64,000 bases of DNA. Source: Clostridia bacterium. Lineage in GTDB: Bacteria; Bacillota; Clostridia; Oscillospirales; CAG-272. A program made the translations under genes and the position numbers. Below the pieces are notes generated by a model, which saw nothing but the letters and a program-made list of their open reading frames with translations, searched no databases and was not told the DNA's origin. The stretch covers positions 102,676 through 166,675 of the forward strand of contig JAGAVJ010000021.1 of assembly GCA_017942005.1 (NCBI GenBank). The letters run 5' to 3'. This document shows positions 1 to 15,605 of this stretch, piece after piece; the stretch's first letter is position 1; each line of letters opens with the position of its first letter.

Positions 1-2496
1 GAAACAATAGGAAATAATGCATTTGATGGCTGTAAAGCGTTGAATACTATCACAATTCCTAAAAGTATCACAAAAATGGGAGAATATGTCTTTTCGGGTT
101 GTGAGGTTCTTTCTTTCGTAACATTTGAAGGACAAGAAGGACAACTGGAAGAAATAGCAAACGGTACCTTTCAATCCTGTGTCAATTTAACAACAATCAA
201 TATTCCTAATAGTGTAAAAAGAATCGGTGATTGGGCGTTTAATAGCTGCAATGCGCTTACAGAAGTAACGCTTCCCGTTTCGTTGGAAACAATAAGTGCT
301 GAAGCATTTTCTCATTCTGGCATCACAAAAATAATAATCCCGGATTCTGTAATAAGTATTGGCGAAAATGTATTTTTTGACTGTTGGGGTTTAGAAGAAA
401 TAATTATATCTGAACAGAGTCAACTTGAATCAGTCGGCGCTTGTGCTTTCCAAAGCACAATAATCCAAACGATTCAGTTTTCTGACAGTTTGAAATCGAT
501 AGGAAACGGAGCATTTTGTTTTTGCGGCAGTCTTGAATCTGTAACTTTAGGAAACGAACTTGAAACAATAGGAGGTGAAGCATTTTCTCATTGTGAAGCG
601 TTAAAAAGCATCATAATACCAGATAGTGTAAATTATATTGAAAACGATGCATTTATTGGCTGCGTAAGTTTGTCTTCTGTTATGCTTCCGACGACTATTG
701 AAACAATGGGGACTGGAGTATTCAGCGATTGTTCCAGTTTGACAGAAATTACAATTCCAAATGGTTTGATAAAGCTTAACGATTGGATGTTTCATAATTG
801 TGAAAAATTAACATCTGTAATATTGCCCGAAGGTTTAACTGAAATTGGAGAGGGCGCATTTTGTAATTGTACTGCACTTACAGAAGTAACGTTGCCCGAT
901 TTACTGGAAACCATTGGAAATCAGGCGTTCTATCATTGTGAAGTGTTAAAAAGCATCAAAATACCGGATAGTGTAACCTCTATTGGTGAAGATGCATTCA
1001 ATGGTTGTTTGGGTTTGTCATATGTTACACTTCCCGCCTATATCGAAACGATAGCCAAGAGCACTTTCTGCGATTGCGGCAGCTTAACAGAAATTGTCAT
1101 TCCAGATAGCGTGACATCCATTGGCGATTGGGCATTTGCTCATACTGCCATCACGGAAATAACGATTCCGGATTTTGTAACAAACATTGGCGAATATGCA
1201 TTTTATTGTACTCTATTGAAATCATTCCGGTTTCCGGAAAATATTACAGTGATCTCTGAAGGAATATTCAGGGATTGCCCCGATCTTCAAATGGTAACAG
1301 TTTATGGAAACGTGACGCAAATAGAAGAAAAAGCATTTTGGTCATGCGGAAATCTTCAATCTGTAAACTTTTTCGGGGATGCCCCGCGAATTGCTGATAC
1401 GGCTTTCCTTCAAGTAAACACTGATATGCTGCGGTTATATTATAAAAGTGACAGAAACGGTTGGGAAAACGCTGATTATCATTATGAAAATATTGTAAAT
1501 GAGATTGGAGATACATATACGTTTTCTTTAATAGTATCTCCTCACGATGTATGTAGTGACGAAACCCTCTGCGACAATGTCTGTGATGTTTGCGGCGAAT
1601 ATTTAAACAACATCAAAGCAAAGCTTGTCAGCCATTCTCTCAGCCTTGCAGGAGATATTGCAGCAAACTTCATCGTAGAATTTAAAGAACAGCCCTCACT
1701 GGATATCCGTATGATCTTTACGGTAAATGGAGAAGAGCAGGCGGTTTCGATATCGGAAGCAACATTAAAGACTGGCACGGCATCTACCTATATATTCCCC
1801 TGCCATGTTGGCGCACCGCAGATGACAGAACCGATTTATGGATATATCTCCGATGGTATAAATCAAAGCTCTACATTTACTTATACTGTAAAAACCTATG
1901 CCGACGCCATTTTAAACATGGCGCCAAGTGAAAACAATGATAAGCTTCAAAATCTTGTTCAGGCAATGCTGAATTACGGTGCATATTCACAGATGTATTT
2001 TAAGGTAAATATAGACAGCCTTGCCGCTGAGGTCGGTGAGGAGGAGCTAACGGCATTCATATCAATTGATGACGAATACGCCTTCGTAAAGCCCATAATT
2101 CCGGAAGGTTTTGGATTGTCCTACGCTGGTTCCAGCTTGATATTGAATTCCAATACCGTATTAAGACATTATTTTGACTTAGAGTCCGGAAGCACGATTA
2201 AGGATTATACCATTACGGCAACAACAGATGGCAATCAAAACATGCCATTGATACTTGGGGAGAAAAACGGTAAAAAATATGTACAGATTGAAAATATATC
2301 TGCTGCCGACCTTGACGTCAAGTATGAAATTACAGTTTCTAAGAATGATGAAAGTTTTACAATGGTATATAGTCCGCTTACCTATATAAGAAATAAACTG
2401 AATAGTTCAACGCCACATCTTAGTCATCTTGTAAATGCGCTTTATCTTTACCATACAGCGGCAGAAACGTATTTACACTATTCAAAGGAGCCTTGA
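1..2496 (+). CDS. BspA-type leucine-rich-repeat (LRR_5) surface protein, 5'-truncated by the window edge, with an uncharacterised tandem-repeat C-terminal domain
   Basis: Frame is open from base 1 (ETIGNNAFDGCKAL). About 20 repeats of ~23 aa (LxxIxIPxSVxxIGxxAFxxCxxL), then a Cys-rich linker (CDNVCDVCG) and a ~290 aa non-LRR C-terminus. No LPxTG, SLH or TM anchor is visible. Confidence 0.9.
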   Translation, partial: ETIGNNAFDGCKALNTITIPKSITKMGEYVFSGCEVLSFVTFEGQEGQLEEIANGTFQSCVNLTTINIPNSVKRIGDWAFNSCNALTEVTLPVSLETISAEAFSHSGITKIIIPDSVISIGENVFFDCWGLEEIIISEQSQLESVGACAFQSTIIQTIQFSDSLKSIGNGAFCFCGSLESVTLGNELETIGGEAFSHCEALKSIIIPDSVNYIENDAFIGCVSLSSVMLPTTIETMGTGVFSDCSSLTEITIPNGLIKLNDWMFHNCEKLTSVILPEGLTEIGEGAFCNCTALTEVTLPDLLETIGNQAFYHCEVLKSIKIPDSVTSIGEDAFNGCLGLSYVTLPAYIETIAKSTFCDCGSLTEIVIPDSVTSIGDWAFAHTAITEITIPDFVTNIGEYAFYCTLLKSFRFPENITVISEGIFRDCPDLQMVTVYGNVTQIEEKAFWSCGNLQSVNFFGDAPRIADTAFLQVNTDMLRLYYKSDRNGWENADYHYENIVNEIGDTYTFSLIVSPHDVCSDETLCDNVCDVCGEYLNNIKAKLVSHSLSLAGDIAANFIVEFKEQPSLDIRMIFTVNGEEQAVSISEATLKTGTASTYIFPCHVGAPQMTEPIYGYISDGINQSSTFTYTVKTYADAILNMAPSENNDKLQNLVQAMLNYGAYSQMYFKVNIDSLAAEVGEEELTAFISIDDEYAFVKPIIPEGFGLSYAGSSLILNSNTVLRHYFDLESGSTIKDYTITATTDGNQNMPLILGEKNGKKYVQIENISAADLDVKYEITVSKNDESFTMVYSPLTYIRNKLNSSTPHLSHLVNALYLYHTAAETYLHYSKEP

Positions 2497-3272
2497 TTCG
2501 ATTGATTAAGAAAAAATTTTATGTATTTTTATTATTTATCTGTGTTCTTATTATGAGCGTATCTTCCCGCATTTGCAATGCTACGGTAATTGAACTTCCG
2601 GAACTGCCTCTTGAGGGTACAAAGGAAACAGAAACAAAGCCTTCTGATAATTATACCTCTCCATCAGTCATAACGGATATTGTAGAACCGGAAGTGGAAC
2701 TGGATACGGATGAAACAGCGCCGCAGGAACTTACTATCAAAACAGTTCAATTCAACGATGTTTTGGTAGACAGCTATTATTATGAAGCTGTACAGTGGGC
2801 AGTTGAAAACCGTATTACAAGCGGAACGGGCGAAGAGACATTCAGTCCGGAGGTATCCTGTACACGCGGACAGATGGTAACATTTCTCTGGAGATTGGCA
2901 AAAGAACCAGAACCAACGATACAGAAATGTCCGTTTGCTGACGTTAACGAAGACGCCTATTATTATAAAGCCGTTTTATGGGCTTTGGAAAATCATTTAA
3001 CATCAGGAACATCAGACACTACATTCAGTCCTGACAGCATAGTAACCAGAGGACAAACTGTTACATTTTTATGGCGGTATGCAGGAAAACCAAGTACATC
3101 AAATTCGATAAATCCGTTTATAGATGTGGATAGCCATGCATATTACAGTGACGGTGTGGTTTGGGCATATCAGAACCATATTACATCGGGAACATCTCAG
3201 ACAGAATTTAGTCCTGATGCAAACTGTACCCGTTCGCAAATCGTGACATTTATGTGGCGTAATCAAAAATAA
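2493..3272 (+). CDS. Secreted S-layer homology (3x SLH) protein with N-terminal IELPELPLE motif and acidic Pro/Thr/Glu linker
   Basis: Signal peptide (KKK, hydrophobic stretch, ...ICNA). Three SLH repeats (FxDVxxxxYYxxAVxWAxxNxITSGT...FSPxxxxTRxQxVTFLWR). TTG start overlaps the upstream TGA. Confidence 0.9.
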   Translation: MIRLIKKKFYVFLLFICVLIMSVSSRICNATVIELPELPLEGTKETETKPSDNYTSPSVITDIVEPEVELDTDETAPQELTIKTVQFNDVLVDSYYYEAVQWAVENRITSGTGEETFSPEVSCTRGQMVTFLWRLAKEPEPTIQKCPFADVNEDAYYYKAVLWALENHLTSGTSDTTFSPDSIVTRGQTVTFLWRYAGKPSTSNSINPFIDVDSHAYYSDGVVWAYQNHITSGTSQTEFSPDANCTRSQIVTFMWRNQK

Positions 3273-3299
3273 TTTTAACAGAAGAAAGGAAGAACTGTG

Positions 3300-3407
3300 A
3301 TGAACAAAGAACAATATGAAACCCCAATTATTGAGGTTGTGGAATTTGAAACTGAGGATATTATTACGACAAGCAATAATGAATTTGAATGCGAAGTTGA
3401 TATTTAA
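3300..3407 (+). CDS. 35-aa RiPP-like precursor peptide MNKEQYETPIIEVVEFETEDIITTSNNEFECEVDI
   Basis: Translated by hand (below the ORF-track cutoff). SD GAAAGGA upstream. YxxP-x-I leader motif typical of RRE-bound leaders. Lies directly upstream of the kinase/RRE/peptidase genes. Confidence 0.8.
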   Translation: MNKEQYETPIIEVVEFETEDIITTSNNEFECEVDI

Positions 3408-3417
3408 AAGTATAAAC

Positions 3418-3477
3418 ATGAAAGAACATTATGTTACACCAGATGAAATTGAACTTCCAGAAATTCCATTAGAATAA
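3418..3477 (+). CDS. 19-aa micro-peptide MKEHYVTPDEIELPEIPLE (short or internally deleted precursor)
   Basis: Translated by hand. YxxP motif as in the preceding peptide; C-terminus matches the SLH protein motif 8/9. SD is weak, so it may be translationally coupled or a relic. Confidence 0.6.
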   Translation: MKEHYVTPDEIELPEIPLE

Positions 3478-3554
3478 AATGAAACGCACTCTGTATACCA
3501 GATAATTAAATAGTCTGTATACAGAGTGTTCTTATATACGCAATGGAGAAAACG

Positions 3555-4247
3555 ATGTTTTCCATAAAACTTGCCAACCATATCTTTACAGTTCAAAATC
3601 AATATTCCTATGTTGAACGCTTGTGTCACGGCTATTTATGTGATAAACCCGGCATACCGATCACTGTGACAGAGGAGGAAATTGAGAGGGAACAGACTGC
3701 CGATATCCAATTTTCAAAAGAATATCTGGAAAGCCTTGCCGTTTACCGCAAAATCTGTGAGTATCTTTTGCACGATGATATCCTTCTGTTTCATGCATCT
3801 GCCGTTATGCTGGACGGAAAGGCATATCTGTTTACAGCGCCGAGCGGAACAGGCAAGAGTACCCATGCAAGGTTGTGGCGTGAAAAATTTGGAAATCGGC
3901 TGGCGGTAATCAATGACGACAAGCCGCTTTTATCGATTACAAAAGACTGTATTACCGTGTACGGAACACCTTATGCAGGCAAGGAACATCTGCAAACGAA
4001 TACCTGTGCCAGAGTTAATGCAATTGTGTTTTTGCATCAGGCGCCGGAGAATACGGTATGCAGATTAAACGCGCATGAAGCGTATCCGAAACTGCTGAAT
4101 CAGGCATACCGTCCTGCCGACAGCACAGGGATGATCAAAACCATGGATTTGATAAAATGCTTGTCCCAGCTTCCCCTGTATTCGCTTCACTGCACGATTT
4201 CACAGGAAGCCGTAGACCTGCTATATTCGCAATTAAAGGAGCTATAA
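3555..4247 (+). CDS. HPr-kinase-like P-loop protein (RiPP peptide-kinase-like)
   Basis: FHASAV...APSGTGKST (His plus Walker A), INDD acidic motif, YGTPY. GGAG SD precedes ATG 3555; alternative start 3543. Confidence 0.8.
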   Translation: MFSIKLANHIFTVQNQYSYVERLCHGYLCDKPGIPITVTEEEIEREQTADIQFSKEYLESLAVYRKICEYLLHDDILLFHASAVMLDGKAYLFTAPSGTGKSTHARLWREKFGNRLAVINDDKPLLSITKDCITVYGTPYAGKEHLQTNTCARVNAIVFLHQAPENTVCRLNAHEAYPKLLNQAYRPADSTGMIKTMDLIKCLSQLPLYSLHCTISQEAVDLLYSQLKEL

Positions 4248-4249
4248 AC

Positions 4250-4519
4250 ATGAAATTGAAAAATGGATTTATTCTCCATGATGTGGGAGACGAACATTTT
4301 GTGGTTGCTACAGAAGATGCATTAAAGACGTTTCACGGAATGATTCGCAACAATGCAAGCGCCAATTTCATCTTTCAGCAGCTGCAAAGAGATACAACAG
4401 AAGAGAAAATTGTTGCAGCAATGCTGAAAAAATATGATGCACCAAAGGAAGTCATTGCTTTCGATGTACACCGTGTGATTGCACAGATACGGAAAGCCGG
4501 TCTTTTGGATGAAGGATGA
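4250..4519 (+). CDS. PqqD-family RiPP recognition element (RRE)
   Basis: 89 aa, MKLKNGFILHDVGDEHFVV...NASANFIFQQL...YDAPKEVIAFDV...LLDE, consistent with the 3-strand/3-helix PqqD pattern. SD AAGGAG. Confidence 0.85.
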   Translation: MKLKNGFILHDVGDEHFVVATEDALKTFHGMIRNNASANFIFQQLQRDTTEEKIVAAMLKKYDAPKEVIAFDVHRVIAQIRKAGLLDEG

Positions 4520-4976
4520 AACTGCGGTGATTGCTGCACAGCTGCGGGCAGGAAAAACAGTGGTGACTTCAACGCGCGGCGTCAGCATGGAACCGCTCTT
4601 GCATGAAGACAAAACCCTTGTCACCCTTCAGCCGGTACAAAGGACACTTTGCGTAGGAGAATTGCCGATTTTCCTTCGTAACGACGGAAAATATGTCATT
4701 CACCGCATCATTGAGGTGCATGACGCCTATTATCGTACAAGAGGAGATAACTGTCTGTCGTCGGAAACAGTACCGCATACATCGGTACTCGGTGTTGTTA
4801 CCGAGATATACAGAAATGGAAGCTATCTCAAGGTGACTGACAAAAAGTATCTATTATATGTATGGATATGGAGAATTACAACGCCGCTCAGACTTATGAT
4901 ATTCAGAGGAATCACATGGTTAAAACGTATCATCAGACGGATTCGTCAAAAGAAGAAAAAAGAGAACAATACCTAA
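4509..4976 (+). CDS. S24/S26-family peptidase (Ser-His type, no N-terminal TM)
   Basis: GVSMEP (catalytic Ser), YVIHRII, TRGDN motifs. Basic amphipathic C-terminus. Overlaps the RRE stop. Confidence 0.85.
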   Translation: MKDETAVIAAQLRAGKTVVTSTRGVSMEPLLHEDKTLVTLQPVQRTLCVGELPIFLRNDGKYVIHRIIEVHDAYYRTRGDNCLSSETVPHTSVLGVVTEIYRNGSYLKVTDKKYLLYVWIWRITTPLRLMIFRGITWLKRIIRRIRQKKKKENNT

Positions 4977-6136
4977 AAGCAGAATATGCCATGCTGTATC
5001 TTACCGCCTGCGGCTTGCACGGTATAAAACCCGATATTGCAGCGGTACGTGCAATGGACTTGGAAGCGGTCTATGCCATCAGTCATCAACAAAGCTTATC
5101 CGCGATTACCTTTACAGCGCTTGCGCTGACAGAAGATGAAAATTTGCATCACACACCGATTTTTCTGCGGTGGCAGGAAGCGAAAAACAAGGCGATTGCA
5201 AAAAACGCTTTGCTGGATATCGAGCGGACAAAACTGTGTGCCTTTCTTGATGAAAAGCAAATATGGTACTTGCCGTTGAAAGGGATTGTCTTAAAAACAT
5301 TTTATCCAAAACCGGAAATGCGCCAGATGGCAGACAATGACATTTTGTTTGATGCTGCATATGAGCAAACGGTACATGACTATTTTACTGCACAAGGGTA
5401 TACTTCAAAGTCTTATGGTGTGAGCCACCATGATATTTATCAAAAACCGCCGATATTGAACTTTGAAATGCATACTGACTTATTTTATAAAACCCATGAT
5501 CCAGTATGGGATACATATTATTCCGATATCAAGTCCAGACTTCTTTGCGATCATCACTATGCCTATCGGTTTCGTGATGAAGATTTTTATATCTATCTGA
5601 TAACACATATGTATAAGCATTACAGCTTTGGCGGTATAGGTGTACGTTCTCTTTTGGACTGCTATGTCTACAATCGCGTAAAAGGGACTGCCCTGGATTG
5701 GTGCTATGTGGAATGTGAGTTGGAAAAATTAGGGATTCTCACATTTGAAAAGAAAATGCGGCAGCTTGCATGGAACGTTTTTTCGTGTCCGGATAATCCT
5801 TCTTTTTCAAAGCTGTTACCGGAAGAACAGGACGCTTTGACGTACTTTTTTGCATCCGGAACATATGGCTCTGTTACGCATCGTGTACAGAATGATTTAA
5901 AAAAAATAAACGGGCAAAGCTCACAGGTTCCGATTATGGTACGGTTGAGCTATATCATAACACGTTTTTTCCCGGATCCTGCGTTTATGCGGGTATGGTG
6001 CAATTGCTATTGTCCTTTTTTGAAATTACACCCCAAACTGTTCTTTCTTGCCTACCCATATCGTATTTTAACGAAGGGATTTAAAAATATGAGGCAATAT
6101 ATCAAGGAATGTCATATCATTATGAAAATTAAATAA
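4862..6136 (+). CDS. Nucleotidyltransferase-family protein (NTP_transf_5-like); start uncertain
   Basis: LPLKGIVL...RQMADNDIL, FEMHTDL, HMYKH...GGIGVRSLLD motifs. The first ~40 codons overlap the peptidase gene, so the true start may be later (4916 or 4991). Confidence 0.8.
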   Translation: MDMENYNAAQTYDIQRNHMVKTYHQTDSSKEEKREQYLKAEYAMLYLTACGLHGIKPDIAAVRAMDLEAVYAISHQQSLSAITFTALALTEDENLHHTPIFLRWQEAKNKAIAKNALLDIERTKLCAFLDEKQIWYLPLKGIVLKTFYPKPEMRQMADNDILFDAAYEQTVHDYFTAQGYTSKSYGVSHHDIYQKPPILNFEMHTDLFYKTHDPVWDTYYSDIKSRLLCDHHYAYRFRDEDFYIYLITHMYKHYSFGGIGVRSLLDCYVYNRVKGTALDWCYVECELEKLGILTFEKKMRQLAWNVFSCPDNPSFSKLLPEEQDALTYFFASGTYGSVTHRVQNDLKKINGQSSQVPIMVRLSYIITRFFPDPAFMRVWCNCYCPFLKLHPKLFFLAYPYRILTKGFKNMRQYIKECHIIMKIK

Positions 6137-6153
6137 TACCGTCTAATACGAAG

Positions 6154-6199
6154 AAAAAACGCAATACCGCAGGAAAAAACTTGCGGTATTGCGTTTTTT
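6154..6199. terminator. Bidirectional intrinsic terminator ending the RiPP-like operon
   Basis: AAAAAACGCAATACCGCA / TGCGGTATTGCGTTTTTT perfect 18-bp inverted repeat. Confidence 0.85.
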
Positions 6200-6339
6200 A
6201 TTTTATAAAAAGTCGTTTCCTATGTACCGTACATGCTGCATGTGCAAGCGTCATGATCATTCACAAAATTTCTATGATCTGCTCATATTACAGTAGTTTT
6301 TTGATCTATGATTATGGTATACTGAATATATGAAGGAGT

Positions 6340-7058
<719 letters not shown>

Positions 7059-7203
7059 GTTTATTTCCGTACAGGAGACTTTTATGGTTTCCTTTCTCAC
7101 TTGAACATGTCTGTACAGTTCTCTTATGTGGTTAGAATAATTTACAATTTTAGTCTTGCGATTATTCGACACTTCATATATAATTATTATAATATGAGTT
7201 CGA

Positions 7204-7260
7204 TGAGGAGATGCTTTTTGAAAAAAGCACCTCCTCAAACTCCACCGCAAAAACTTTTAT
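7204..7260 (+). repeat. REP-like palindromic repeat, copy 1
   Basis: TGAGGAGRTGCTTTTTGAAAAAAGCRCCTCCTCAAACTC...CAAAAACTTTT; near-identical at 26282 and 38594. Confidence 0.85.
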
Positions 7261-7299
7261 AATTACAATGATAGACTGGTAAGAAAGGATGAGCGAGTG

Positions 7300-7422
7300 A
7301 TGGAATATATGTCTTACACTAAAGATGCGGATAAGTGGGATATTTCAAAAAGATGGAAACCAAGTCTGAAAAATAAATTTTTCAGACCGTGTTTTGTGGC
7401 TTACGCCACAACTCCACATTAG
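7300..7422 (+). pseudogene. Remnant of a small HTH DNA-binding gene (MEYMSYTKDADKWDISKRW...) fused to repeat copy B
   Basis: SD GAAAGGA. N-terminus resembles the MEYMS...A.KW.IS.R excisionase-like HTH pattern, then runs into element sequence. Confidence 0.45.
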
Positions 7423-7467
7423 AAAGGAAATAACTTTTACAAAGTAAAAGTTATGGTCATAATCATG
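7362..7467 (+). repeat. Structured start-site element, copy B
   Basis: GTCTGAAAAAT/ATTTTTCAGAC; TTGTGGC-TTAC-GCCACAA; SD GAAAGGA; TAACTTTTAC-AAA-GTAAAAGTTA; ATGGTCATAATCATG. Confidence 0.8.
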
Positions 7468-8169
7468 AATGAATACAAAATAATGATCGTTGATGATGAG
7501 CCGGACATATTGGAGCTGCTTGAAAAATCACTTGCCGTCGAGGGCTTCCGCCATATCATAAAAATAGACAACGGACTTTCTGCGGTAAGCTCCTGCAAGG
7601 AATTACAACCTGACGTGATTATTTTGGACGTTATGCTGCCGGGGCTTGACGGTTACGAGGTCTGCAAACGAATTCGAGCGTTTTCCCATTGCCCGATTTT
7701 ATTTCTTTCATCAAAGAATGATGAATTGGATAAAATACTTGGTTTGGCTGTCGGCGGAGACGATTATGTAACAAAGCCGTTCAGTCCGAAAGAGGTGGCT
7801 TTCCGCGTAAAAGCGCAGCTGCGCCGGGTAGAGTATAGGCAGCATCCACTGAAAGAACAGTCCATAAAGGTTGGGGCATTGAACATTGATCCGGAGGGCT
7901 GCCGGGTCACGAAAGATGGAAAGGAGATTGAACTGACTGCCCGCGAATTTGAAATCCTGCAATACATGGCGCAGAATATCGGACGTGTCATAAGTCGTGA
8001 AAGGCTGTATGAAACGGTATGGGGTGAGGACAGTTACGGGTGTGATAATACAATTATGGTGCATATCCGGCACTTGCGGGAAAAGATTGAAAATAACCCC
8101 GCCTACCCAAAATACCTTATCACCATGAAAGGCTTGGGCTACAAGTTGGTAAATCCCCATGAAACATAA
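7453..8169 (+). CDS. OmpR-family response regulator
   Basis: IVDDE, LDVMLP, GGDDYVTKPF, winged-HTH TIMVHIRHLREKIE. Start 7453 or 7465. Confidence 0.95.
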   Translation: MVIIMNEYKIMIVDDEPDILELLEKSLAVEGFRHIIKIDNGLSAVSSCKELQPDVIILDVMLPGLDGYEVCKRIRAFSHCPILFLSSKNDELDKILGLAVGGDDYVTKPFSPKEVAFRVKAQLRRVEYRQHPLKEQSIKVGALNIDPEGCRVTKDGKEIELTAREFEILQYMAQNIGRVISRERLYETVWGEDSYGCDNTIMVHIRHLREKIENNPAYPKYLITMKGLGYKLVNPHET

Positions 8170-9580
8170 ACTGAAACACAATCCCTTTCTTCATACAGCG
8201 GTGATATTGGTTGTCCTTTTTGTCATTCTGATTATGTTCGCAATCGGTATGTTTTACTATGTCTTTGCAATTCCAGAGCCAGAAGGATTCAGTCTTGCTT
8301 CATGGCCGAATACCTTTACCGACAATTTTTCTGAATGGATAGAAGAAAAAAACGGGAGTATCGGTGTAAAAGAAATCGGCATAGAACGGTTGGATAAATA
8401 CGGCTTGTGGGTACAGATTGTTGACGAAAACGGACAAGAACGATTTGCGCACAACAAGCCTGCTTACTATCCGGACAGTTACAGCATGGCAGAGATGATC
8501 TCCCTTGCTGAAAGCAGATATGAAAACGGATATACCGTTTTTATCAATACTGTTACGCTTTCGGATAGGACACTCAACTATGTGATTGGCTTTCCTTATG
8601 CTGTTGGAAAGTATATGCTGTATTATAACGGTGAAAATGTGGCGCGGTTGTCACCATTCACAAAAACCGTGGTGTTTTTGTCTGCCGCTGTTTTGGTTTT
8701 TTGCGCCTTTGCGTATACATTTTGGCTTTCCCGAAAGCTGTCAACTGTGATCGGTGGTATTAGAAACATCATGCAAAACAATTACAAGCCTTTAAAGGAA
8801 GCAGGGATCTTCGGGGAAACATACAACTCGCTGAATAAAATGAATATGGAAATCCGGCGCAGTGAGAAGGTACAACAGGAAACCGACCGTACCAGAAAGG
8901 AATGGATAACAAATATTACCCATGACTTGAAAACCCCTCTTTCGCCGATAAAAGGATATGCGGAGCTTCTTTCCACAGGAAGCAGTCTTGATTTACAGAC
9001 GGTGCAGGACTGGGGGAAACTGATTTTGAAGAATGCAGATTACATGGAAACGCTGATGAACGATTTAAAACTGACATATCAGCTCGAAGCTGGAGCAATC
9101 CCCTATACTCCACAGGAAATACGGATCGTTCGTTTCCTGAAAGAGTTGGTAATCGATATCATAAACGATCCTGCTTTTTCAAAGCGGACGATAGCGTTTG
9201 AAAGTGGTATGTCGGAGCTGATAGCTGTAGTTGACCCCGATCTTCTGCGCCGCGCTGTCGGGAATATCGTTATCAACGCCCTTGTGCATAATCCCCCTGA
9301 TACCAAAGTTAAAATAACGGTTAACAAAACCCCGGATAACTGCCTGTCTATTTCCATTTGCGATAATGGAAGCGGCATGGACGAAACAGAACTGTCCGAC
9401 TTGTGGAACCGTTATTACAGAGGAACGAACACCAAAGAACGGTCAGAAGGCAGCGGACTTGGGCTTGCCATTGCAAAGCAGATTGTCACGCTTCATGGCG
9501 GCGAAATTGCCGTCAAGAGCAGTCCCGGTGTGGGGACGAAATTTATAATCCTGCTTCCGCTTGGGGCTGCTGCAAATTAA
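8159..9580 (+). CDS. Sensor histidine kinase
   Basis: Two TM segments, THDLKTPL H-box, NALVHN, DNGSG, GSGLGL. Confidence 0.95.
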   Translation: MKHKLKHNPFLHTAVILVVLFVILIMFAIGMFYYVFAIPEPEGFSLASWPNTFTDNFSEWIEEKNGSIGVKEIGIERLDKYGLWVQIVDENGQERFAHNKPAYYPDSYSMAEMISLAESRYENGYTVFINTVTLSDRTLNYVIGFPYAVGKYMLYYNGENVARLSPFTKTVVFLSAAVLVFCAFAYTFWLSRKLSTVIGGIRNIMQNNYKPLKEAGIFGETYNSLNKMNMEIRRSEKVQQETDRTRKEWITNITHDLKTPLSPIKGYAELLSTGSSLDLQTVQDWGKLILKNADYMETLMNDLKLTYQLEAGAIPYTPQEIRIVRFLKELVIDIINDPAFSKRTIAFESGMSELIAVVDPDLLRRAVGNIVINALVHNPPDTKVKITVNKTPDNCLSISICDNGSGMDETELSDLWNRYYRGTNTKERSEGSGLGLAIAKQIVTLHGGEIAVKSSPGVGTKFIILLPLGAAAN

Positions 9581-9630
9581 GATGAAATTAAGATACGCAA
9601 AAGCAACACATAAGATAGGTGGTCTATACT
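9577..9630 (+). promoter_or_regulatory. Probable response-regulator direct-repeat site and -10 for the ABC operon
   Basis: TTAAGAT at 9577 and 9588, ATAAGAT at 9610 (11 and 22 bp phasing); TATACT at 9625-9630; no consensus -35. Confidence 0.65.
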
Positions 9631-9692
9631 AATAAGCATAGGCCGCCTACCTTTTTTTGTGTGCCTATGATTAAAACAAGGAGGATTTTGTT

Positions 9693-10598
9693 ATGGAATT
9701 ACAACTACAGCATTTAAGCAAACACTATGGTACCAAATACGCGGTTCATGATGTTAGTACCACGCTTTCGCCCGGCGTGTATGGTCTGCTTGGTGCAAAC
9801 GGTGCGGGAAAGACGACGTTAATGCGTATGCTCTGCGGCGTTTTAGCGCCCACTTTTGGCAGGATTTGTTTGGATGGGCAGAGCATTGAGAAATTGGGGG
9901 AAGATTATTACGCCCATTTGGGCTATATGCCGCAGGACTTTGGCTTTTACCCCGACTTTACTGCACGCGAATTTATGCGATATATGGCGGCGGTGAAGGG
10001 GCTTGACAAAAAAGAAGTAAAAGACCGTACAGAGGAATTATTAAAATTGGTGAATCTGCATCATGTAGCAGACAAAAAAATCAAATTCTTTTCCGGCGGC
10101 ATGAAGCAGCGTTTAGGAATTGCTCAGGCAGAGCTGAACTCCCCTGACATTCTCATATTAGACGAGCCGACTGCCGGGCTCGACCCCAAAGAGCGTGTGC
10201 GCTTTCGCAATCTGATATCTGATTTTGCAAAGGAAAAAATTGTCATTCTGTCTACCCATATTGTATCGGATGTTTCCTATATCGCAGATACCATTTTGAT
10301 GATGAAAGACGGAACATTTCTGCTGCAAGAGCCTATGGCTGCTGTAACCGACTGTATCAGAGGCAAGGTATGGGAGCTTTTGGTGAGTGACCGGGAAGCC
10401 GCAGAATACAGCAGCCGCTTTTCCGTTGTTAATCTGCACCATGAAAATGGAAAAGTACGTTTGCGCATGATCCATGAAACAATTCCGGCAGCGGACGCTA
10501 TCACGGTCCAACCGAGTTTAGAAGATTTATTCTTATATTACTTTGGAGAAGAAGCCGGGACAGAAAGGAGCGAATCAGGTTATGTTAGTAAAATATGA
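9693..10598 (+). CDS. ABC transporter ATP-binding protein
   Basis: GANGAGKTT, SGGMKQR, ILDEPT, STH. Confidence 0.95.
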   Translation: MELQLQHLSKHYGTKYAVHDVSTTLSPGVYGLLGANGAGKTTLMRMLCGVLAPTFGRICLDGQSIEKLGEDYYAHLGYMPQDFGFYPDFTAREFMRYMAAVKGLDKKEVKDRTEELLKLVNLHHVADKKIKFFSGGMKQRLGIAQAELNSPDILILDEPTAGLDPKERVRFRNLISDFAKEKIVILSTHIVSDVSYIADTILMMKDGTFLLQEPMAAVTDCIRGKVWELLVSDREAAEYSSRFSVVNLHHENGKVRLRMIHETIPAADAITVQPSLEDLFLYYFGEEAGTERSESGYVSKI

Positions 10599-11811
10599 AT
10601 TTTTGAAGATACTCCGAAAAAAATCCACACGGATTGTCATGGCAGTCAGTCTGCTTGTAACGGCGTTTCTCTTTGGTCTGCCGATCCTGCAATTCCAGAC
10701 CTATCATCAGGAGGGGGTAATCAAAGGATTTGAAGGGATCAACTATGAAAAGGAACAGACAGCGAAGTATGCCGTCTCTCTGACAGATACGTACATCACC
10801 GAAGCAATCCGCGAGGTACAGCAGCTTTTTGACAATCCCGATTATGTGGGGTATGACGGTCACGAGCGTTTTTTAATCGAGAACGCCTATTGGGATAATA
10901 TTGCGCCAAAGGAAGCCCTATTGGGGATGATTGCCAAAAACTTTGCAAATCCAAACGAAAGCGTGGGGTATAATTCTCTGCCGGAATTGGACATTTCAGA
11001 GGGTGTAAACTTCTATCGGGCAAGACAGGAAAAAATCGAAAAACTGTTAAATGCTTCTTCTAATGGAATGTCCGAGAAACAAAAGACGTATTGGCAAAAC
11101 ATGAACAGCAAAGTTGATGAACCGTTTCAATATGGCTACTACAAAGGATGGGAGGTTATAATAAGCAGCTTTGAGCTGCTGACATTTGCACTTTTCGCTG
11201 TCTGCATCGTGATTGCCCCTGTCTTTTCCGGCGAGTATCAAGCCGGAACAGATGCGGTAATTCTATCGGCAAAATATGGAAAAACAAAGCTTACCACGGC
11301 TAAAATCATAGCTTCCTATCTGTTCGGGGTGTTAGCCTTTACGCTCCATGTCATCATAGCGCTTGGACTGCCTCTTGCAGCATTCGGCTTTGAGGGGTGG
11401 GATTTGCCGCTGCAAATTGCAAACACGACAATACCGTATCCGCTTACATTCCTGCAGGCTGCGCTTATCCAGTTAAGCGTGGTTTACCTTGTATTGTCCG
11501 CCCTGATTGGCTTGACGCTTCTGCTGTCAGCAAAAATGAAAAGTCCATATCTTGTGCTTACCGTGCTTGCGCCAGTTCTTTTTATTCCACTGTTTCTCTC
11601 ACCTAACGGGACAACAGGCGTATATAACTTAACTTTGTTTTTATTACCGTACCGAGCCACTGTGCCGGAGCTTGGAAACTATATCTCCTATCAGTTTGGC
11701 GGGATAGTCTTTGACGCATTTACCATGAGAGCCATTTTGTATGCGGTGCTTACGATGATTATGCTGCCAATTGCAAGAATTGGATTTAAGAAACATCAGG
11801 TATCAGCATAG
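10582..11811 (+). CDS. ABC-2 type permease (peptide-antibiotic resistance/export type)
   Basis: TM1, large extracellular loop, FSGEYQAG...SAKYGK motif, further TMs. SD GAAAGGAG. Confidence 0.85.
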   Translation: MLVKYEFLKILRKKSTRIVMAVSLLVTAFLFGLPILQFQTYHQEGVIKGFEGINYEKEQTAKYAVSLTDTYITEAIREVQQLFDNPDYVGYDGHERFLIENAYWDNIAPKEALLGMIAKNFANPNESVGYNSLPELDISEGVNFYRARQEKIEKLLNASSNGMSEKQKTYWQNMNSKVDEPFQYGYYKGWEVIISSFELLTFALFAVCIVIAPVFSGEYQAGTDAVILSAKYGKTKLTTAKIIASYLFGVLAFTLHVIIALGLPLAAFGFEGWDLPLQIANTTIPYPLTFLQAALIQLSVVYLVLSALIGLTLLLSAKMKSPYLVLTVLAPVLFIPLFLSPNGTTGVYNLTLFLLPYRATVPELGNYISYQFGGIVFDAFTMRAILYAVLTMIMLPIARIGFKKHQVSA

Positions 11812-11918
11812 GGAGGACAGGTTTGATGGTGGTCGAAGTTCCTTAGATACAAAAGGGAAACGCTAATACTACGCACTCCATGGATACCGCCGTGTGCGGC
11901 TTGTATTAGGAGATGGAA

Positions 11919-11959
11919 AAGGGGGCTGCTGCAAGTTGAAAACTTGCAACAGCCCCCTT
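11919..11959. repeat. GGGCTGYTGCA...TGCAACAGCCC palindrome (terminator-like; family member)
   Basis: Near-perfect inverted repeat between convergent genes; reverse-oriented relative at 36154-36186. Confidence 0.65.
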
Positions 11960-12112
11960 GATTTTTTGTATTACAATTGAATGCGGTTTTGGGCTTACAA
12001 AATCGTTTTGGCAGAATCAATCGGAAGCTTAACGTTTTGTTCCTTCCATATGTGAACGGAGAATGATATTGATATCAACAGAACAGGGATCTCTGTTTTG
12101 TTGCAGATACGT

Positions 12113-12832
12113 TTATTCCTCGCCGCAATACACCTTAATTGCTTCCATTACAAATGCAGCCGTACCATCACCACCAGCTTTATCAATGTTTTTTTGAAAA
12201 CGTTCATCACACACATACATCTGTCCTAATCCCTTTAAAATCTCGTTTGTACAGTTGTAGTAATTTTTCGTGATGAAGCTTTGCAGCGCGCGAATTTTCT
12301 CCTGCGCTTTGGCATCACGAGGGGACAGGTCACGAAGTGTTCCTATTTCTGCAAACAACGACATCAATTGATTTGCGATTTTGCTGTCGTCACAATTTCT
12401 TTTTTGTGTATATTCGTTGTATGCTTTGGTTTTACCCCATTTTTCTCTTACTTCTTCTTTATACTGTTCCATTTCATTTTTGTCAAAAACCTGAAAATTC
12501 ATGGATGTAACTCCTTTGGCTTGAATTTCACGGGCAAAGGAAATCAGTTCGCCGATGTGTTTATATTGTATTTCCAATAGTTTGATTTGCTGCGCCAATG
12601 CCTCCTCGGCATTAAATGCAGGATTATCAAGAATTGCTTTAATGTCTTTCAGCGGAAACTGCAATTCGCGAAACAACAAAATACTTTGCAATCGGACAAC
12701 GGCTGCATCGTCATACAGCCGATAGCCTGCATCGGTTACTTTTGTAGGTTTCAAAAGTCCAATTGCGTCATAGTGATGCAGTGTGCGCACACTTACACCT
12801 GTAACTTTGCTCATTTCATTGACGGTTCGCAT
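12113..12832 (-). CDS. MerR-family regulator with TipAS-like effector domain
   Basis: SVRTLHHYDAIGLL...GYRLY; C-terminal GLGQMYVCDERF. Confidence 0.92.
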   Translation of the reverse strand: MRTVNEMSKVTGVSVRTLHHYDAIGLLKPTKVTDAGYRLYDDAAVVRLQSILLFRELQFPLKDIKAILDNPAFNAEEALAQQIKLLEIQYKHIGELISFAREIQAKGVTSMNFQVFDKNEMEQYKEEVREKWGKTKAYNEYTQKRNCDDSKIANQLMSLFAEIGTLRDLSPRDAKAQEKIRALQSFITKNYYNCTNEILKGLGQMYVCDERFQKNIDKAGGDGTAAFVMEAIKVYCGEE

Positions 12833-12855
12833 ATGTATCCCTCCCGTGTGATTCT

Positions 12856-12886
12856 ATTATACACGATGACGTAACGTGAGAGTCAA
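12856..12886 (-). promoter_or_regulatory. MerR-type promoter with 19-bp spacer and operator dyad
   Basis: Minus strand TTGACT-N19-TATAAT; spacer contains the TCACGTTACGTCA imperfect palindrome. Confidence 0.85.
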
Positions 12887-13095
12887 TAGGTTTTCAAAAA
12901 ATTCACAAAAATTTTTATTTACGGCAGGAGATATCCAAAAAATAATTGGCGTTCATATGGCAGGAAAAGATGAGTACCACGGTTCTATTAACGATAGATT
13001 ATATATAAATCGTAGGTTATGCTAACCATACTGTCATACACCTCTCTATTTTGTAAATAGGGGAGATAGAAGCATCGTTACATGACACATAAAAA

Positions 13096-13542
13096 TTATA
13101 GTTTAAACAGTGGAGCATTCGGTTTATCGGTGATAGATTTACTGTAAAATCCGAGAAAATCTTTTTTCTCCCAACCGCGATTGATCCAAAATTGTTTTCC
13201 GGCTTCGTTTGATTCCATAACATTTAAGCAAACGCGCGTAATCCCTTCCTGTTTCAGTGCAAGGACGGCATGGTCTATTAGAGCGGTTGCGATACCGCGG
13301 TTTCTATAGTCGCTTTCTACAACCGTATGATATATGTATCCTCTGCGGCCGTCATTACCGCACAAAATTGCACCGACAATTTGATGATCATATACAGCAA
13401 CAAAATTTGTTGTAGGATTCCGTTTTAAAAACATAGAAATTCCTTCTTTGGAATCGTCAAGACTTCTCAATCCCATGTTTTCCGTATGGCTCCATAATGC
13501 AAAGACATCATCATAATCATGTAACGTCATAACACGAATCAT
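13096..13542 (-). CDS. GNAT acetyltransferase (YpeA-like)
   Basis: GNDGRRGYIYHTVV, YRNRGIATAL, N..G..FW...GW. Confidence 0.9.
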   Translation of the reverse strand: MIRVMTLHDYDDVFALWSHTENMGLRSLDDSKEGISMFLKRNPTTNFVAVYDHQIVGAILCGNDGRRGYIYHTVVESDYRNRGIATALIDHAVLALKQEGITRVCLNVMESNEAGKQFWINRGWEKKDFLGFYSKSITDKPNAPLFKL

Positions 13543-13680
13543 AAATCAATTTTCCTCGTTTCTAAATCACTTGATATATATCATTATATCACAAGATTAT
13601 GAATATTTCCGCTTTTTTCAAATGATATGAATAAAGAAGAGAAGGACATGGCAGTCAAAATGAATGCCGTGTCCGTTTGT

Positions 13681-15543
13681 TTATTTAATAGATAGGTTAC
13701 TATTTTTACACACTTTTTGATAGATGACCAATACATGATCGATATATGCGTATTGGATATATCCGTTTTCTTCCAATAATTTTACAAGTGCTGTATATTC
13801 CTGCTTCTTTTTCATTGCAGCCGCATGATTCTGATCATTGCCATCGGCAGGAATACTTAATACCACGTACTCGGTCTCCAATACATGTGCCTTGGAACAG
13901 TACTGTGCATCATACAAAATTTTTCGTTTTGATAGAGATGTGGTATAAAATGTTGATGCGGTGACGGACGCATCATCTGGGATGAGATGCAAGGTATCAC
14001 GAATATTTTGATAGTAATCATAATATTGAATTGCCCGCACTGGGTAGGAAATTCCTTTTGGGATGATGATCAAACCAAAACACAGCGCACTGACAGCTGC
14101 TGCCGCAGCTACAGCGATGATACGCATTCGGTTTCTTTGCATATCTGCCAAATTGATGACTGTCAGATAGAATAACAATGCCGCAGAACCAAAGGTATAT
14201 TGGAAAAAGATATCGTGCTGATAGACATAATCCGGCATCAGATTGACTAAAACGTAGGGAATGAGTAAAATATACCGTTCATACCGCCGTGTGAGCAAAG
14301 GCATGCCCAGCAGCGGAAGCAGTGTCATGCCGATGAAGGGAAACTTTTGCGCGTCAGCACATTCATAAAGAACCTTCATAGGGTGGAGTATGACCGCCTT
14401 TATGACCGTGAGCAGAGATGTGGATTCACCATACATAAAATTACGGTATCGGTATGTCATGACGCCATCGCCATGTTTTGTCAAATATGTGGTGACGGCG
14501 AGAAACCAGCCAATGGAAAGGAGTAATAGAATCATCGCGGTAATCAGTGTTCGTCTGTTTTTCTCCTTTGGTTTTAGGAGTGTTTTTACAATAAAATACA
14601 AAGCGATGACTGCCGTGTATACAGCGGCATCTTCTTTTACCGTAAGCGTGAGAAGCGCTGAGATTACGGTCAAAACGGAATTTTGGGAGTCAAAGCCGTA
14701 CAGCGTCCATAAAATCAACGGTGCGAGAAAACAGTTTTCATGAAAATCATAGCCTGTCCCGCCGGAATATGCCGGATAAAGTAACAGCATGGCAGCAATG
14801 CATGTCTGATATCCTCCGGATAAGCCGTGAAGCCTTGCAAGCTTTATAAGCGGGATTACCGCAGATACAAGTACCAGCGCCTGCAAGACTTGTAGTGCGG
14901 CAGGTGTGGGACACAGGATGTAGAAGGGAAGCAGCAGATAGTAAATTGGTGAAACATGGACCGCAAAGTGCGATAACAGTCCGTCCCGTTCTACAGTTGT
15001 CATGGGAACGCCGGATTCTTTCATGAAATAAAACATCTGTGAAAAGATGCCCATATCAAACGTAGGGGACTGAAAGCAGTAAATTCTGCCAACGGTCCAA
15101 GCGCTGACAAACAGCACAAACAGGACAGATAATATAAGAATGATTCGCGTGCGGCAGTACGCTGGTTGGGTTTGCGCTGCTTTATCGGTATTGTTCCATC
15201 CAAATATCCCATAGACAAGCAATAGAACAAAAATAAAAATGCAGACTGCGAGATAGGAAAGCGTAAATGAAGGAACGAGAGAAATTGCTGCAATCATCAT
15301 AAACACTGCTGCAATTCCAAGGCGTTCTGCCTTTTCTGTTTGGGTGAGATGCGAAACGGCAGAATATAGCAGGAAAAAACCGACGGTTAGCAGAATCATG
15401 TAAATTGGCGACAGCTGTTCCAGACCATCCAGATCACAAAGATTGCGCAGTGCATTTGGGAGCAGCAAATACAGTACCAAAACAGAAGATAACCATGAAA
15501 GAAGAATACGCCGTATCCAGTGCGGAAATTGATATTGTGTCAT
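13681..15543 (-). CDS. DUF2079-like polytopic membrane protein (GT-C-like)
   Basis: FDMGIFSQM, SHFAVHVSP, YDFHENCF, VKEDAA motifs; many TMs. Confidence 0.75.
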   Translation of the reverse strand: MTQYQFPHWIRRILLSWLSSVLVLYLLLPNALRNLCDLDGLEQLSPIYMILLTVGFFLLYSAVSHLTQTEKAERLGIAAVFMMIAAISLVPSFTLSYLAVCIFIFVLLLVYGIFGWNNTDKAAQTQPAYCRTRIILILSVLFVLFVSAWTVGRIYCFQSPTFDMGIFSQMFYFMKESGVPMTTVERDGLLSHFAVHVSPIYYLLLPFYILCPTPAALQVLQALVLVSAVIPLIKLARLHGLSGGYQTCIAAMLLLYPAYSGGTGYDFHENCFLAPLILWTLYGFDSQNSVLTVISALLTLTVKEDAAVYTAVIALYFIVKTLLKPKEKNRRTLITAMILLLLSIGWFLAVTTYLTKHGDGVMTYRYRNFMYGESTSLLTVIKAVILHPMKVLYECADAQKFPFIGMTLLPLLGMPLLTRRYERYILLIPYVLVNLMPDYVYQHDIFFQYTFGSAALLFYLTVINLADMQRNRMRIIAVAAAAAVSALCFGLIIIPKGISYPVRAIQYYDYYQNIRDTLHLIPDDASVTASTFYTTSLSKRKILYDAQYCSKAHVLETEYVVLSIPADGNDQNHAAAMKKKQEYTALVKLLEENGYIQYAYIDHVLVIYQKVCKNSNLSIK

Positions 15544-15605
15544 AAGAACACCCCCTGTAGCTTTTATTATACAGGGGGTGTCTTTCGCAAAAGCTGATAT
15601 ATTTC

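Follow-up and report, generated by a model that had tools for sequence, protein, structure and literature searches.

Why should a protein anchored in the cell wall carry, at its free end, nearly the same nine residues that close a 19-residue peptide encoded a little further downstream? This question is raised by the beginning of a 64,000-nucleotide stretch of DNA, called here the window (G000:C38:102676-166675; contig JAGAVJ010000021.1 of assembly GCA_017942005.1), from a Clostridia bacterium of the Oscillospirales whose genome (G000, 3.0 Mb) is 88% complete. We describe its first 6.2 kb, where all genes lie on the plus strand: the 3' part of a gene for a large secreted leucine-rich repeat (LRR) protein, the gene of a small protein with S-layer homology (SLH) repeats, two short open reading frames (ORFs) for peptides A and B, and four enzyme genes. 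Judged by its gene content, this is a cluster of the linear polyphosphorylated peptide (LPP) type, a member or variant of the family of RiPPs (peptides made by ribosomes and modified after translation) published in 2026 (Popov et al., Nat Commun 2026, PMC13381572). The answer developed below is that the nine residues appear to exemplify a short proline motif, with the consensus [E/D]-L-P-x-φ-P-φ-[G/D/E], which in other genomes too is found at the tips of envelope-anchored stalk proteins and at the tails of peptide precursors, and which could serve as a ligand.

The shared motif and its recurrence

The SLH ORF (2493-3272) starts with a TTG that overlaps the stop of the LRR gene by 4 bases and encodes 259 residues, organized into a signal peptide, an acidic linker of about 55 residues rich in Thr, Pro and Glu, and three SLH repeats (PF00395, E = 8e-28, three stretches). 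By its signal peptide and its three repeats the product is predicted to be a wall-anchored SLH protein; the signal peptide and the CNA|TV cleavage site were judged by eye. The ORF reads ...SRICNA TV IELPELPLE GTKE..., and the motif (residues 33-41, 2589-2615) begins two residues after the predicted cleavage site, at the end of the stalk that is distal to the SLH anchor. The second copy, IELPEIPLE (3448-3474), forms the C-terminus of peptide B (ORF B, 3418-3477), whose translation, MKEHYVTPDEIELPEIPLE followed by a stop, joins a YVTP leader start directly to the motif-bearing tail. The sequence-only reading of the window had reported both copies, and their sequences and positions are confirmed.

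The two copies lie 860 bases apart and agree at 8/9 residues and 20/27 bases, and they are exactly the two matches of the pattern [IVL]ELP[ED][ILV]P in the six-frame translation of the genome (5,996,244 residues). In 20,000 shuffles each, a match of 8/9 came up 0 times for the SLH linker and 17 times for the last 10 residues of B; for a peptide chosen beforehand such a match is unlikely, with a probability on the order of 1e-4. At the DNA level the local alignment of the copies stretches to about 40 bases with 3 gap positions, and its score of 16 was equaled or exceeded in 4 of 500 shuffles. The codons differ at the synonymous positions that had been listed (CCG/CCA, CCT/CCA, CTT/TTA, GAG/GAA), from which the sequence-only reading had argued for selection at the protein level rather than a recent DNA duplication. 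The second half of this argument holds: given the synonymous differences, the copy cannot be a recent one. The first half is no stronger than chance would make it: the same codon is used at 4 of the 8 identical residues, versus 3.4 expected under independent choice from the genome's codon usage, and the differences alone are no proof of selection.

The motif is absent from the best 120 of 3514 SLH homologues. Its region in the SLH gene is covered in three related strains (X3, X4 and X8) with no listed difference, which at a divergence of 1-3% is little informative. It is the relaxed form, E-[LF]-P-x-φ-P-φ, that recurs elsewhere, again at stalk tips and precursor tails. The clearest case is provided by another genome of the same family (G013, genus g4), in which one locus (L048) encodes, in this order, a large surface protein, a precursor and a 232-residue SLH protein (3636-4340, minus strand; PF00395, E = 1e-26). 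Here the SLH repeats are N-terminal and the protein ends in ...ERDENELPIVPIG, while a canonical precursor with a YxxP leader on another contig of the same genome (L096, C15) ends in ...ETEENELPMVPIG. Stalk and precursor both finish in ENELP[IM]VPIG, at the same residue, with identity at 10/13 residues and 31/38 bases, an agreement attained in 0/2000 shuffles. Across the whole of this genome ELPxφPφ has 5 matches versus 3 for the controls, and just the stalk and the L096 precursor are related. The large protein encoded before the tagged precursor (L096, upstream of 4001, G013:C15) ends in a stretch resembling a dockerin calcium-binding repeat (...DMNGDGKFTLIDILRILK...).

A second tagged stalk is found in a genome from a different family (G055), where a 189-residue lipoprotein is encoded between the precursor and the kinase of an LPP-like locus; its lipobox is followed by about 165 acidic residues rich in Ser, Gly and Asp, and its sequence ends in ...VELPFVPFD. 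Among 149 representative precursors from the protein database, four carry [LF]PxφP in their tails, compared with a mean of 0.17 after shuffling, and none of 1000 shuffles reached four; in three of these precursors the motif lies at the C-terminus or at most 2 residues from it (...DLPFVPVD, ...KLPFVPF, ...ENELPFVPSL). In all three tagged stalks the motif occupies the end distal to the anchor, irrespective of polarity: it is found N-terminally in the window's SLH protein, whose repeats are C-terminal, and C-terminally in the stalks of G013 and G055, which carry N-terminal anchors.

How general is the likeness between tip and tail? Altogether seven stalk-like proteins were found near precursors, namely the SLH protein of the window, the L048 protein, the G055 lipoprotein and four others: a second SLH protein of G013 (L103), lipoproteins in G005 (L077) and G027 (L035), and a membrane-anchored acidic protein in G050 (L034). 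Seven tip/tail pairs were compared by BLOSUM62 local alignment with 2000 shuffles per pair. No shuffle attained the observed score for the tip of the window's SLH protein with the tail of B or for the SLH tip on contig C37 of G013 with the precursor tail on C15, and only 4 did so for the SLH tip on contig C8 of G013 with the adjacent precursor (GPNDTPFA / GDNETAFA). The remaining pairs, each of a tip with the tail of the adjacent precursor, were matched by 100 (G013 C37), 248 (G050), 936 (G055) and 1312 (G005) of the 2000 shuffles. Of 14 tip/tail pairs whose two members share a genome, two reach 7/8 identities and one reaches 5, versus none above 5 among 168 pairs taken across genomes. The G005 protein comes from the genus of the window: it is a 227-residue lipoprotein encoded right after a precursor (L077, 178-858, plus strand), with an acidic stalk of about 190 residues, rich in Pro, Thr and Glu, that ends in ...DDGAIVLPIIRF, and its tip is unlike the tail of its precursor.

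The precursor family and peptide B

According to the main text of the paper on LPPs, the leader of the precursor LppA follows the consensus YxxPxVLxHQxIxFET|xxS, in which YxxP is bound by LppB, a discrete RiPP recognition element (RRE); the SipW-like peptidase LppS cuts after T-1, solely with LppB present, and is inactive alone; and the HprK-like kinase LppK, which is specific for Ser, adds several phosphates to Ser+3 (PMC13381572). The same source reports that LppN was inactive in the heterologous host and has no known role, and states that the biological role of LPPs and of paeninodin-type peptides is unknown (PMC13381572).

Homologues of the window's kinase are encoded in 28 of 61 related genomes, often with PqqD and peptidase genes after them, and metagenome contigs added three distant related loci, with kinases 39-50% identical. 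From the peptides encoded upstream of the kinase homologues we built a profile, A1, which has matches at E <= 1 in 21 of the 61 relatives, with 16 matches in one genome. In a library of 1.84 billion representative proteins it matches 1295 representative clusters at E <= 0.001, and in this way defines a large clostridial branch of the LPP family. Its members follow the consensus MKKxYxxPxxEφφxFExxDVIxTS, which precedes a variable tail of 10-30 residues. Fourteen of 25 family precursors are encoded at most 125 bases 3' of a same-strand ORF of at least 330 residues, with an overlap of 1-4 bases in two cases; the loci in which a precursor lies near a large gene are L033, L046, L048, L073-L075, L081, L087, L094, L096, L097, L100, L103 and L104. 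The large upstream ORF is often cut by the end of the locus and reaches more than 2180 residues. A different set of enzymes is encoded in G050 (L034, 7118-9607, minus strand), where the order is a membrane-anchored acidic stalk, a precursor-like peptide that lacks YxxP and has a tail rich in Cys, a 405-residue protein, PqqD and an HprK-like protein; the 405-residue protein has a CxxxCxxC motif and by its appearance looks like a radical SAM enzyme.

Peptide A (3300-3407, 35 residues) fits this consensus. It is preceded by a ribosome-binding site (GAAAGGAAG), and it matches profile A1 with E = 2e-13 in its own genome and E = 8e-10 in the library of 1.84 billion representatives. Its LppA-like sequence runs YETP...FET...DIITTS and then into an acidic tail; the spacing from Tyr to Phe is 3 residues shorter than in the LPP consensus, and the residue at +3 is Ile. 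Peptide B does not fit. It is without the central leader segment FE..DVIxTS, and of the leader only YVTP is kept; neither B nor a longer version of it was found when candidates were sought in the protein collection.

What B may once have been is suggested by the comparison of strains, for which contigs from other gut metagenomes were aligned to positions 2400-3700. In X3 peptide B is identical to that of the window, and in X9 a single substitution (3427 C>T) changes His4 to Tyr. In X4, a rat-gut strain, a contig of 316 bases matches the window at 3418-3440 and 3444-3630, with 60 letters in place of the window's 3, a net gain of 57 bases that is in frame and falls right after YVTP. The 19 extra residues are what a canonical precursor needs between YxxP and a tail of about 14 residues, and B of the window strain therefore looks like a normal precursor, with the motif at the end of its tail, that has lost an internal segment in frame. 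The unaligned ends of X4 point to a different C-terminal tail of A, whose stop seems, as read by eye, to overlap the ATG of B. Together with the in-frame indel and the hairpin, which follows B and not A, this overlap speaks for B being a gene or having been one. The precursor tails thus differ between strains that are otherwise about 98% identical (window 3378-3443 versus X4). Another possibility considered, that B is a leader-only peptide with the canonical 13-residue spacing, was dropped as the main reading in view of the additional 57 bases in X4 and of the tagged full-length precursors.

Ligand, relic, substrate or coincidence

Our preferred reading, to which we give as much credence as doubt, is that tip and tail represent a single ligand, the one anchored and the other diffusible. 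In some LPP-type precursors of these Clostridia the motif forms the C-terminal tail; these have a YxxP leader and would pass through the hands of the PqqD-family RRE, the HprK-like kinase and the SipW-like peptidase. In small, acidic, envelope-anchored stalk proteins of the same loci it forms the free tip, held in place by an SLH or a lipobox anchor. In the window the SLH protein is the stalk, with its tip N-terminal and its anchor C-terminal, and ORF B carries the tail; the ligand reading supposes that B, or the longer allele of it, is expressed and its product exported. Tip and tail might compete for the same binding partner or hand it over to each other. The most likely partner would be the large secreted LRR protein encoded directly upstream, which is itself devoid of a wall anchor and may bind the motif through a tandem Ig-like C-terminal domain (CTD).

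The candidacy of the LRR protein rests on its signal peptide, on the LRR families as its only Pfam matches, on the existence of fusions between LRR_5 and SLH, on the placement of precursors behind such large genes and on the recurrence of its CTD. The BspA-type protein (3' part at 1-2496 of the window; PF13306 LRR_5, E = 4e-193) comprises 1302 residues in full, read together with its signal peptide from contig C38. Pfam found LRR families alone in the 831 residues encoded in the window, and the N-terminal part of about 470 residues was read by eye. Seven of the best 120 of 3514 SLH homologues combine SLH with LRR_5 in one protein. The CTD, the last 294 or so residues (1612-2493), has no Pfam match; its model (pLDDT 74, pTM 0.72) shows two Ig-like sandwich-plus-helix modules, for which the fold search returned generic Ig-like matches only, with TM-scores around 0.2. 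Domains 20-29% identical to it form the C-terminal end of large proteins that are unlike in other respects and are encoded directly 5' of precursors in G055, G033 and G013 (L033, 8528-9445; L090, 1596-2504; L048, 4639-5541; all on the minus strand). Co-folding of the CTD alignment with SLH residues 31-80 gave a score of 0.73 in 3/3 runs and 0.55 for one unrelated control, and we count this neither way.

A number of results weigh against the ligand reading. The exact 9-mer is without relatives: its back-translated pattern occurs in 3 of 400 genomes of the family, always in unrelated ORFs and contexts, versus 4 occurrences for the reversed-pattern controls. The SLH linker has no orthologue either, since residues 28-90 retrieved only their own cluster from 5.8 billion proteins. 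In bulk the relaxed motif at C-termini is no commoner than its reversal (6 matches versus 10 for the controls in 121 genomes), so that the argument is carried by the contexts and not by the counts. Four of the seven tip/tail pairs are no better than their shuffles; one of the three that are alike, and likewise one of the two pairs with 7/8 identities from the same genome, is the finding itself. Among other precursors, 0/21 and 0/8 showed a match at the level of a 9-mer to their own fetched locus. Peptide B, too, counts against it. No Shine-Dalgarno sequence precedes its ATG, it is without any Ser, and profile A1 does not detect it at E <= 1 in its own genome.

The idea of the sequence-only reading that B goes through the RRE machinery is not supported as it stands, for B is not a normal substrate, given the missing Ser, the missing FE..DVIxTS segment and the silence of the profile; in the window strain B may not be processed, and its role there is doubtful. 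The same reading had described the motif as a functional tag, displayed by the SLH protein on an acidic linker above the wall. The position proposed for it agrees with the anchor-distal placement in all three stalks. The notion of a tag on a stalk is partly supported, and this by the independent loci (G013, G055 and the four database tails) rather than by the original arguments, as the motif class recurs while the exact 9-mer does so nowhere else.

One competing explanation is chance, namely that two segments rich in Glu, Leu and Pro coincide here and that the other examples are unrelated. We scanned the genome for pairs of 9-mers with at least 8 identities in different stop-to-stop ORFs at most 2 kb apart, and removed DNA repeats and paralogues. 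This left 29 isolated, protein-only pairs, 8 of which involve a same-strand ORF of at least 150 residues, whereas about 25 such pairs per genome are expected by chance (hand arithmetic). A match of this strength is thus unremarkable across a large scan, very many windows having been scanned, and the window's own match, taken alone, is weak evidence; that the pattern counts equal those of the controls points in the same direction. Coincidence nevertheless strikes us as highly improbable in view of the pair itself (0/20,000 shuffles), of the independent G013 pair with its 10/13 identities ending at the same residue, of the tagged stalk inside the G055 locus, and of the enrichment in the 149 precursor tails, which 0/1000 shuffles equaled.

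A common origin without a common function would be another matter: in a hypervariable region, partial duplication or gene conversion may carry short pieces of DNA between precursor tails and neighboring stalk genes, and the motif would then be a relic of recombination. The closeness of the copies (860 bases), their gapped alignment over some 40 bases (only 4/500 shuffles as good), the 31/38 bases shared by the G013 pair, the polymorphism of the region among strains, with the changed tail of A and the 57-base indel of B in X4, and the serine recombinase gene adjoining the operon all suit such a history. We still find it unlikely. With a codon identity of 4 versus 3.4 expected, any copying must be ancient and the residues must have been kept since; the motif is distal to the anchor in both polarities, on the non-homologous SLH and lipobox anchors and in three genera; and unrelated precursors from the protein library also end in motifs of this class.

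It is also conceivable that tip and tail are not ligands at all but two substrates of one enzyme, with the motif as a recognition or modification site for the SipW-like peptidase, the nucleotidyltransferase (NTase), or some further ligase or peptidase. SipW-type peptidases serve dedicated secreted proteins encoded in their neighborhood. In the canonical LPP spacing the ...I-P-L-E of B aligns with the I-x-F-E that just precedes the cleavage site, and in the SLH protein the residue next to the motif is Gly; moreover, LppN, as the main text of the LPP paper has it, awaits a role (PMC13381572). Yet the stalks are without the YxxP needed by the RRE, and the peptidase alone does not cut, according to the same text (PMC13381572). 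The tagged proteins of G013 and G055 end with the motif, so that nothing is left behind it to be cleaved off, and the spacing of the clostridial leader differs from the canonical one. This explanation we hold to be decidedly unlikely.

A bolder extension of the ligand reading, in our estimate very unlikely, would make the LPP-type peptides neither antibiotics nor signals but adaptors for surface display. After removal of the leader, the N-terminal Ser, polyphosphorylated and perhaps also extended by the NTase, would serve as a teichoic-acid-like anchor in the wall, and the C-terminal tail would dock the adhesin encoded upstream. The SLH- and lipid-anchored stalks would be the protein-encoded equivalents showing the same tag, and each locus would carry a matched pair of adhesin and tag.

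Whichever role applies, some LPP-like precursor tails have a copy at the free tip of envelope-anchored stalks of the same loci, the copied motif is a simple peptide of the PxxP type, and clostridial precursors are usually encoded behind genes of large surface proteins. The tail copies, the surface-protein neighbors and the nature of the motif together point to a role of the peptides at the cell surface. The open role of LPPs thereby becomes accessible at the bench with short synthetic peptides (TVIELPELPLEGTKE and DEIELPEIPLE) and one recombinant domain.

The operon and its likeness to known systems

Downstream of B, the precursor genes are separated from the enzyme genes by a strong hairpin located directly 3' of B (3486-3529; -22 kcal/mol, z = -5.1, with 0/200 shuffles equally stable). 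The HprK-like kinase gene follows (LppK-like, 3543-4247), with a Walker A motif SGTGKST and matches to the NCBIfam models ScmC and HprK_rel_A/B that all remain below the cut-offs. Next come the discrete RRE of the PqqD family (LppB-like, 4247-4519; PF05402, E = 2e-13), the sole PqqD match in the genome, and, overlapping it, an archaeal-type or SipW-like signal peptidase I (LppS-like, 4479-4976), which displays SMEP, HR and GDN motifs and matches, in each case below the cut-off, the SipW model (E = 9e-5) and TIGR02228 (E = 8e-9). The last gene encodes an uncharacterized NTase (LppN-like, 4862-6136; PF14907, E = 4e-39), and the operon is closed by an intrinsic terminator (6154-6199) with a 20-pair stem and a run of T. 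A scan of 2300-6100 against Rfam returned no match.

The gene for a serine recombinase (PF00239, E = 6e-26; 6375-7058) stands directly after this terminator, and the cassette may for this reason be mobile or invertible. It is followed (7453-11811) by an OmpR-type response regulator, a histidine kinase and a split ABC-2 transporter, a layout common beside peptide clusters; similar sensors accompany lasso clusters of rumen bacteria (PMC7533575).

The assignment to the LPP type follows from the set of peptidase, RRE, kinase and NTase. The window shares with the published clusters (lppA-K-B-S-D-N; PMC13381572, main text) the combination of a discrete PqqD-type RRE, assigned by PF05402, with a SipW-like signal peptidase I, assigned by models matched below their cut-offs; the presence of a PF14907 NTase and an HprK-like kinase in one operon, the latter with subthreshold matches and a visible Walker A motif; and a small precursor, peptide A, in whose leader YxxP and FET are both present, the number of precursor ORFs being one to three per cluster. 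It differs in that no MsbA-like exporter (LppD) was found among the ORFs of at least 100 residues in positions 1-16,000, the stretch searched, where the nearest ABC system is the split ABC-2 type (ABC_tran and ABC2_membrane_2). The clostridial leaders are distinguished by a spacing from Tyr to Phe that is 3 residues shorter and by the conserved DVIxTS block that follows, and they are without Ser at +3 after FET. Furthermore, the clostridial precursors are dispersed, with up to 16 profile matches (E <= 1) per genome, mostly just 3' of the genes of large surface proteins.

The paeninodin- and pseudomycoidin-type lasso clusters of Bacillota (PMC7533575) resemble the window in a YxxP-type leader read by a PqqD RRE and in the use of an HprK-like kinase and an NTase as tailoring enzymes. 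A lasso cluster proper can be excluded, as no Asn-synthetase-like cyclase is encoded beside the operon (PF00733 matches occur on contigs C15, C18 and C29 alone, not on C38) and the B2 transglutaminase-type peptidase (PF13471) has 0 matches in this 88%-complete genome. A signal of the sortase (LPXTG) or exosortase type has a hydrophobic segment and a basic tail after its motif; this candidate was rejected as well, the motif being the extreme C-terminus in B, G013 and G055 and N-terminal in the SLH protein of the window.

A functional parallel may be sought in cohesin-dockerin systems, in which proteins are anchored via SLH-bearing scaffoldins, and in SH3-type domains, which bind PxxP ligands. 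Neither cohesin, dockerin nor SH3 domains were detected in the proteins of the window, the CTD being generic Ig-like, and binding is hypothetical here. The resemblance lies in the φPxφP core of the motif, as in SH3 ligands, and in the arrangement by which a small wall-anchored adaptor would offer a docking element to a large, anchorless secreted protein. Literature searches returned no further paper on the LPP family, and the main text of the LPP paper does not mention stalk proteins or a motif shared by tip and tail (PMC13381572). It is therefore the LPP cluster family that was known, and the stalk proteins, the motif at their free end and its sharing with precursor tails that we add to it.

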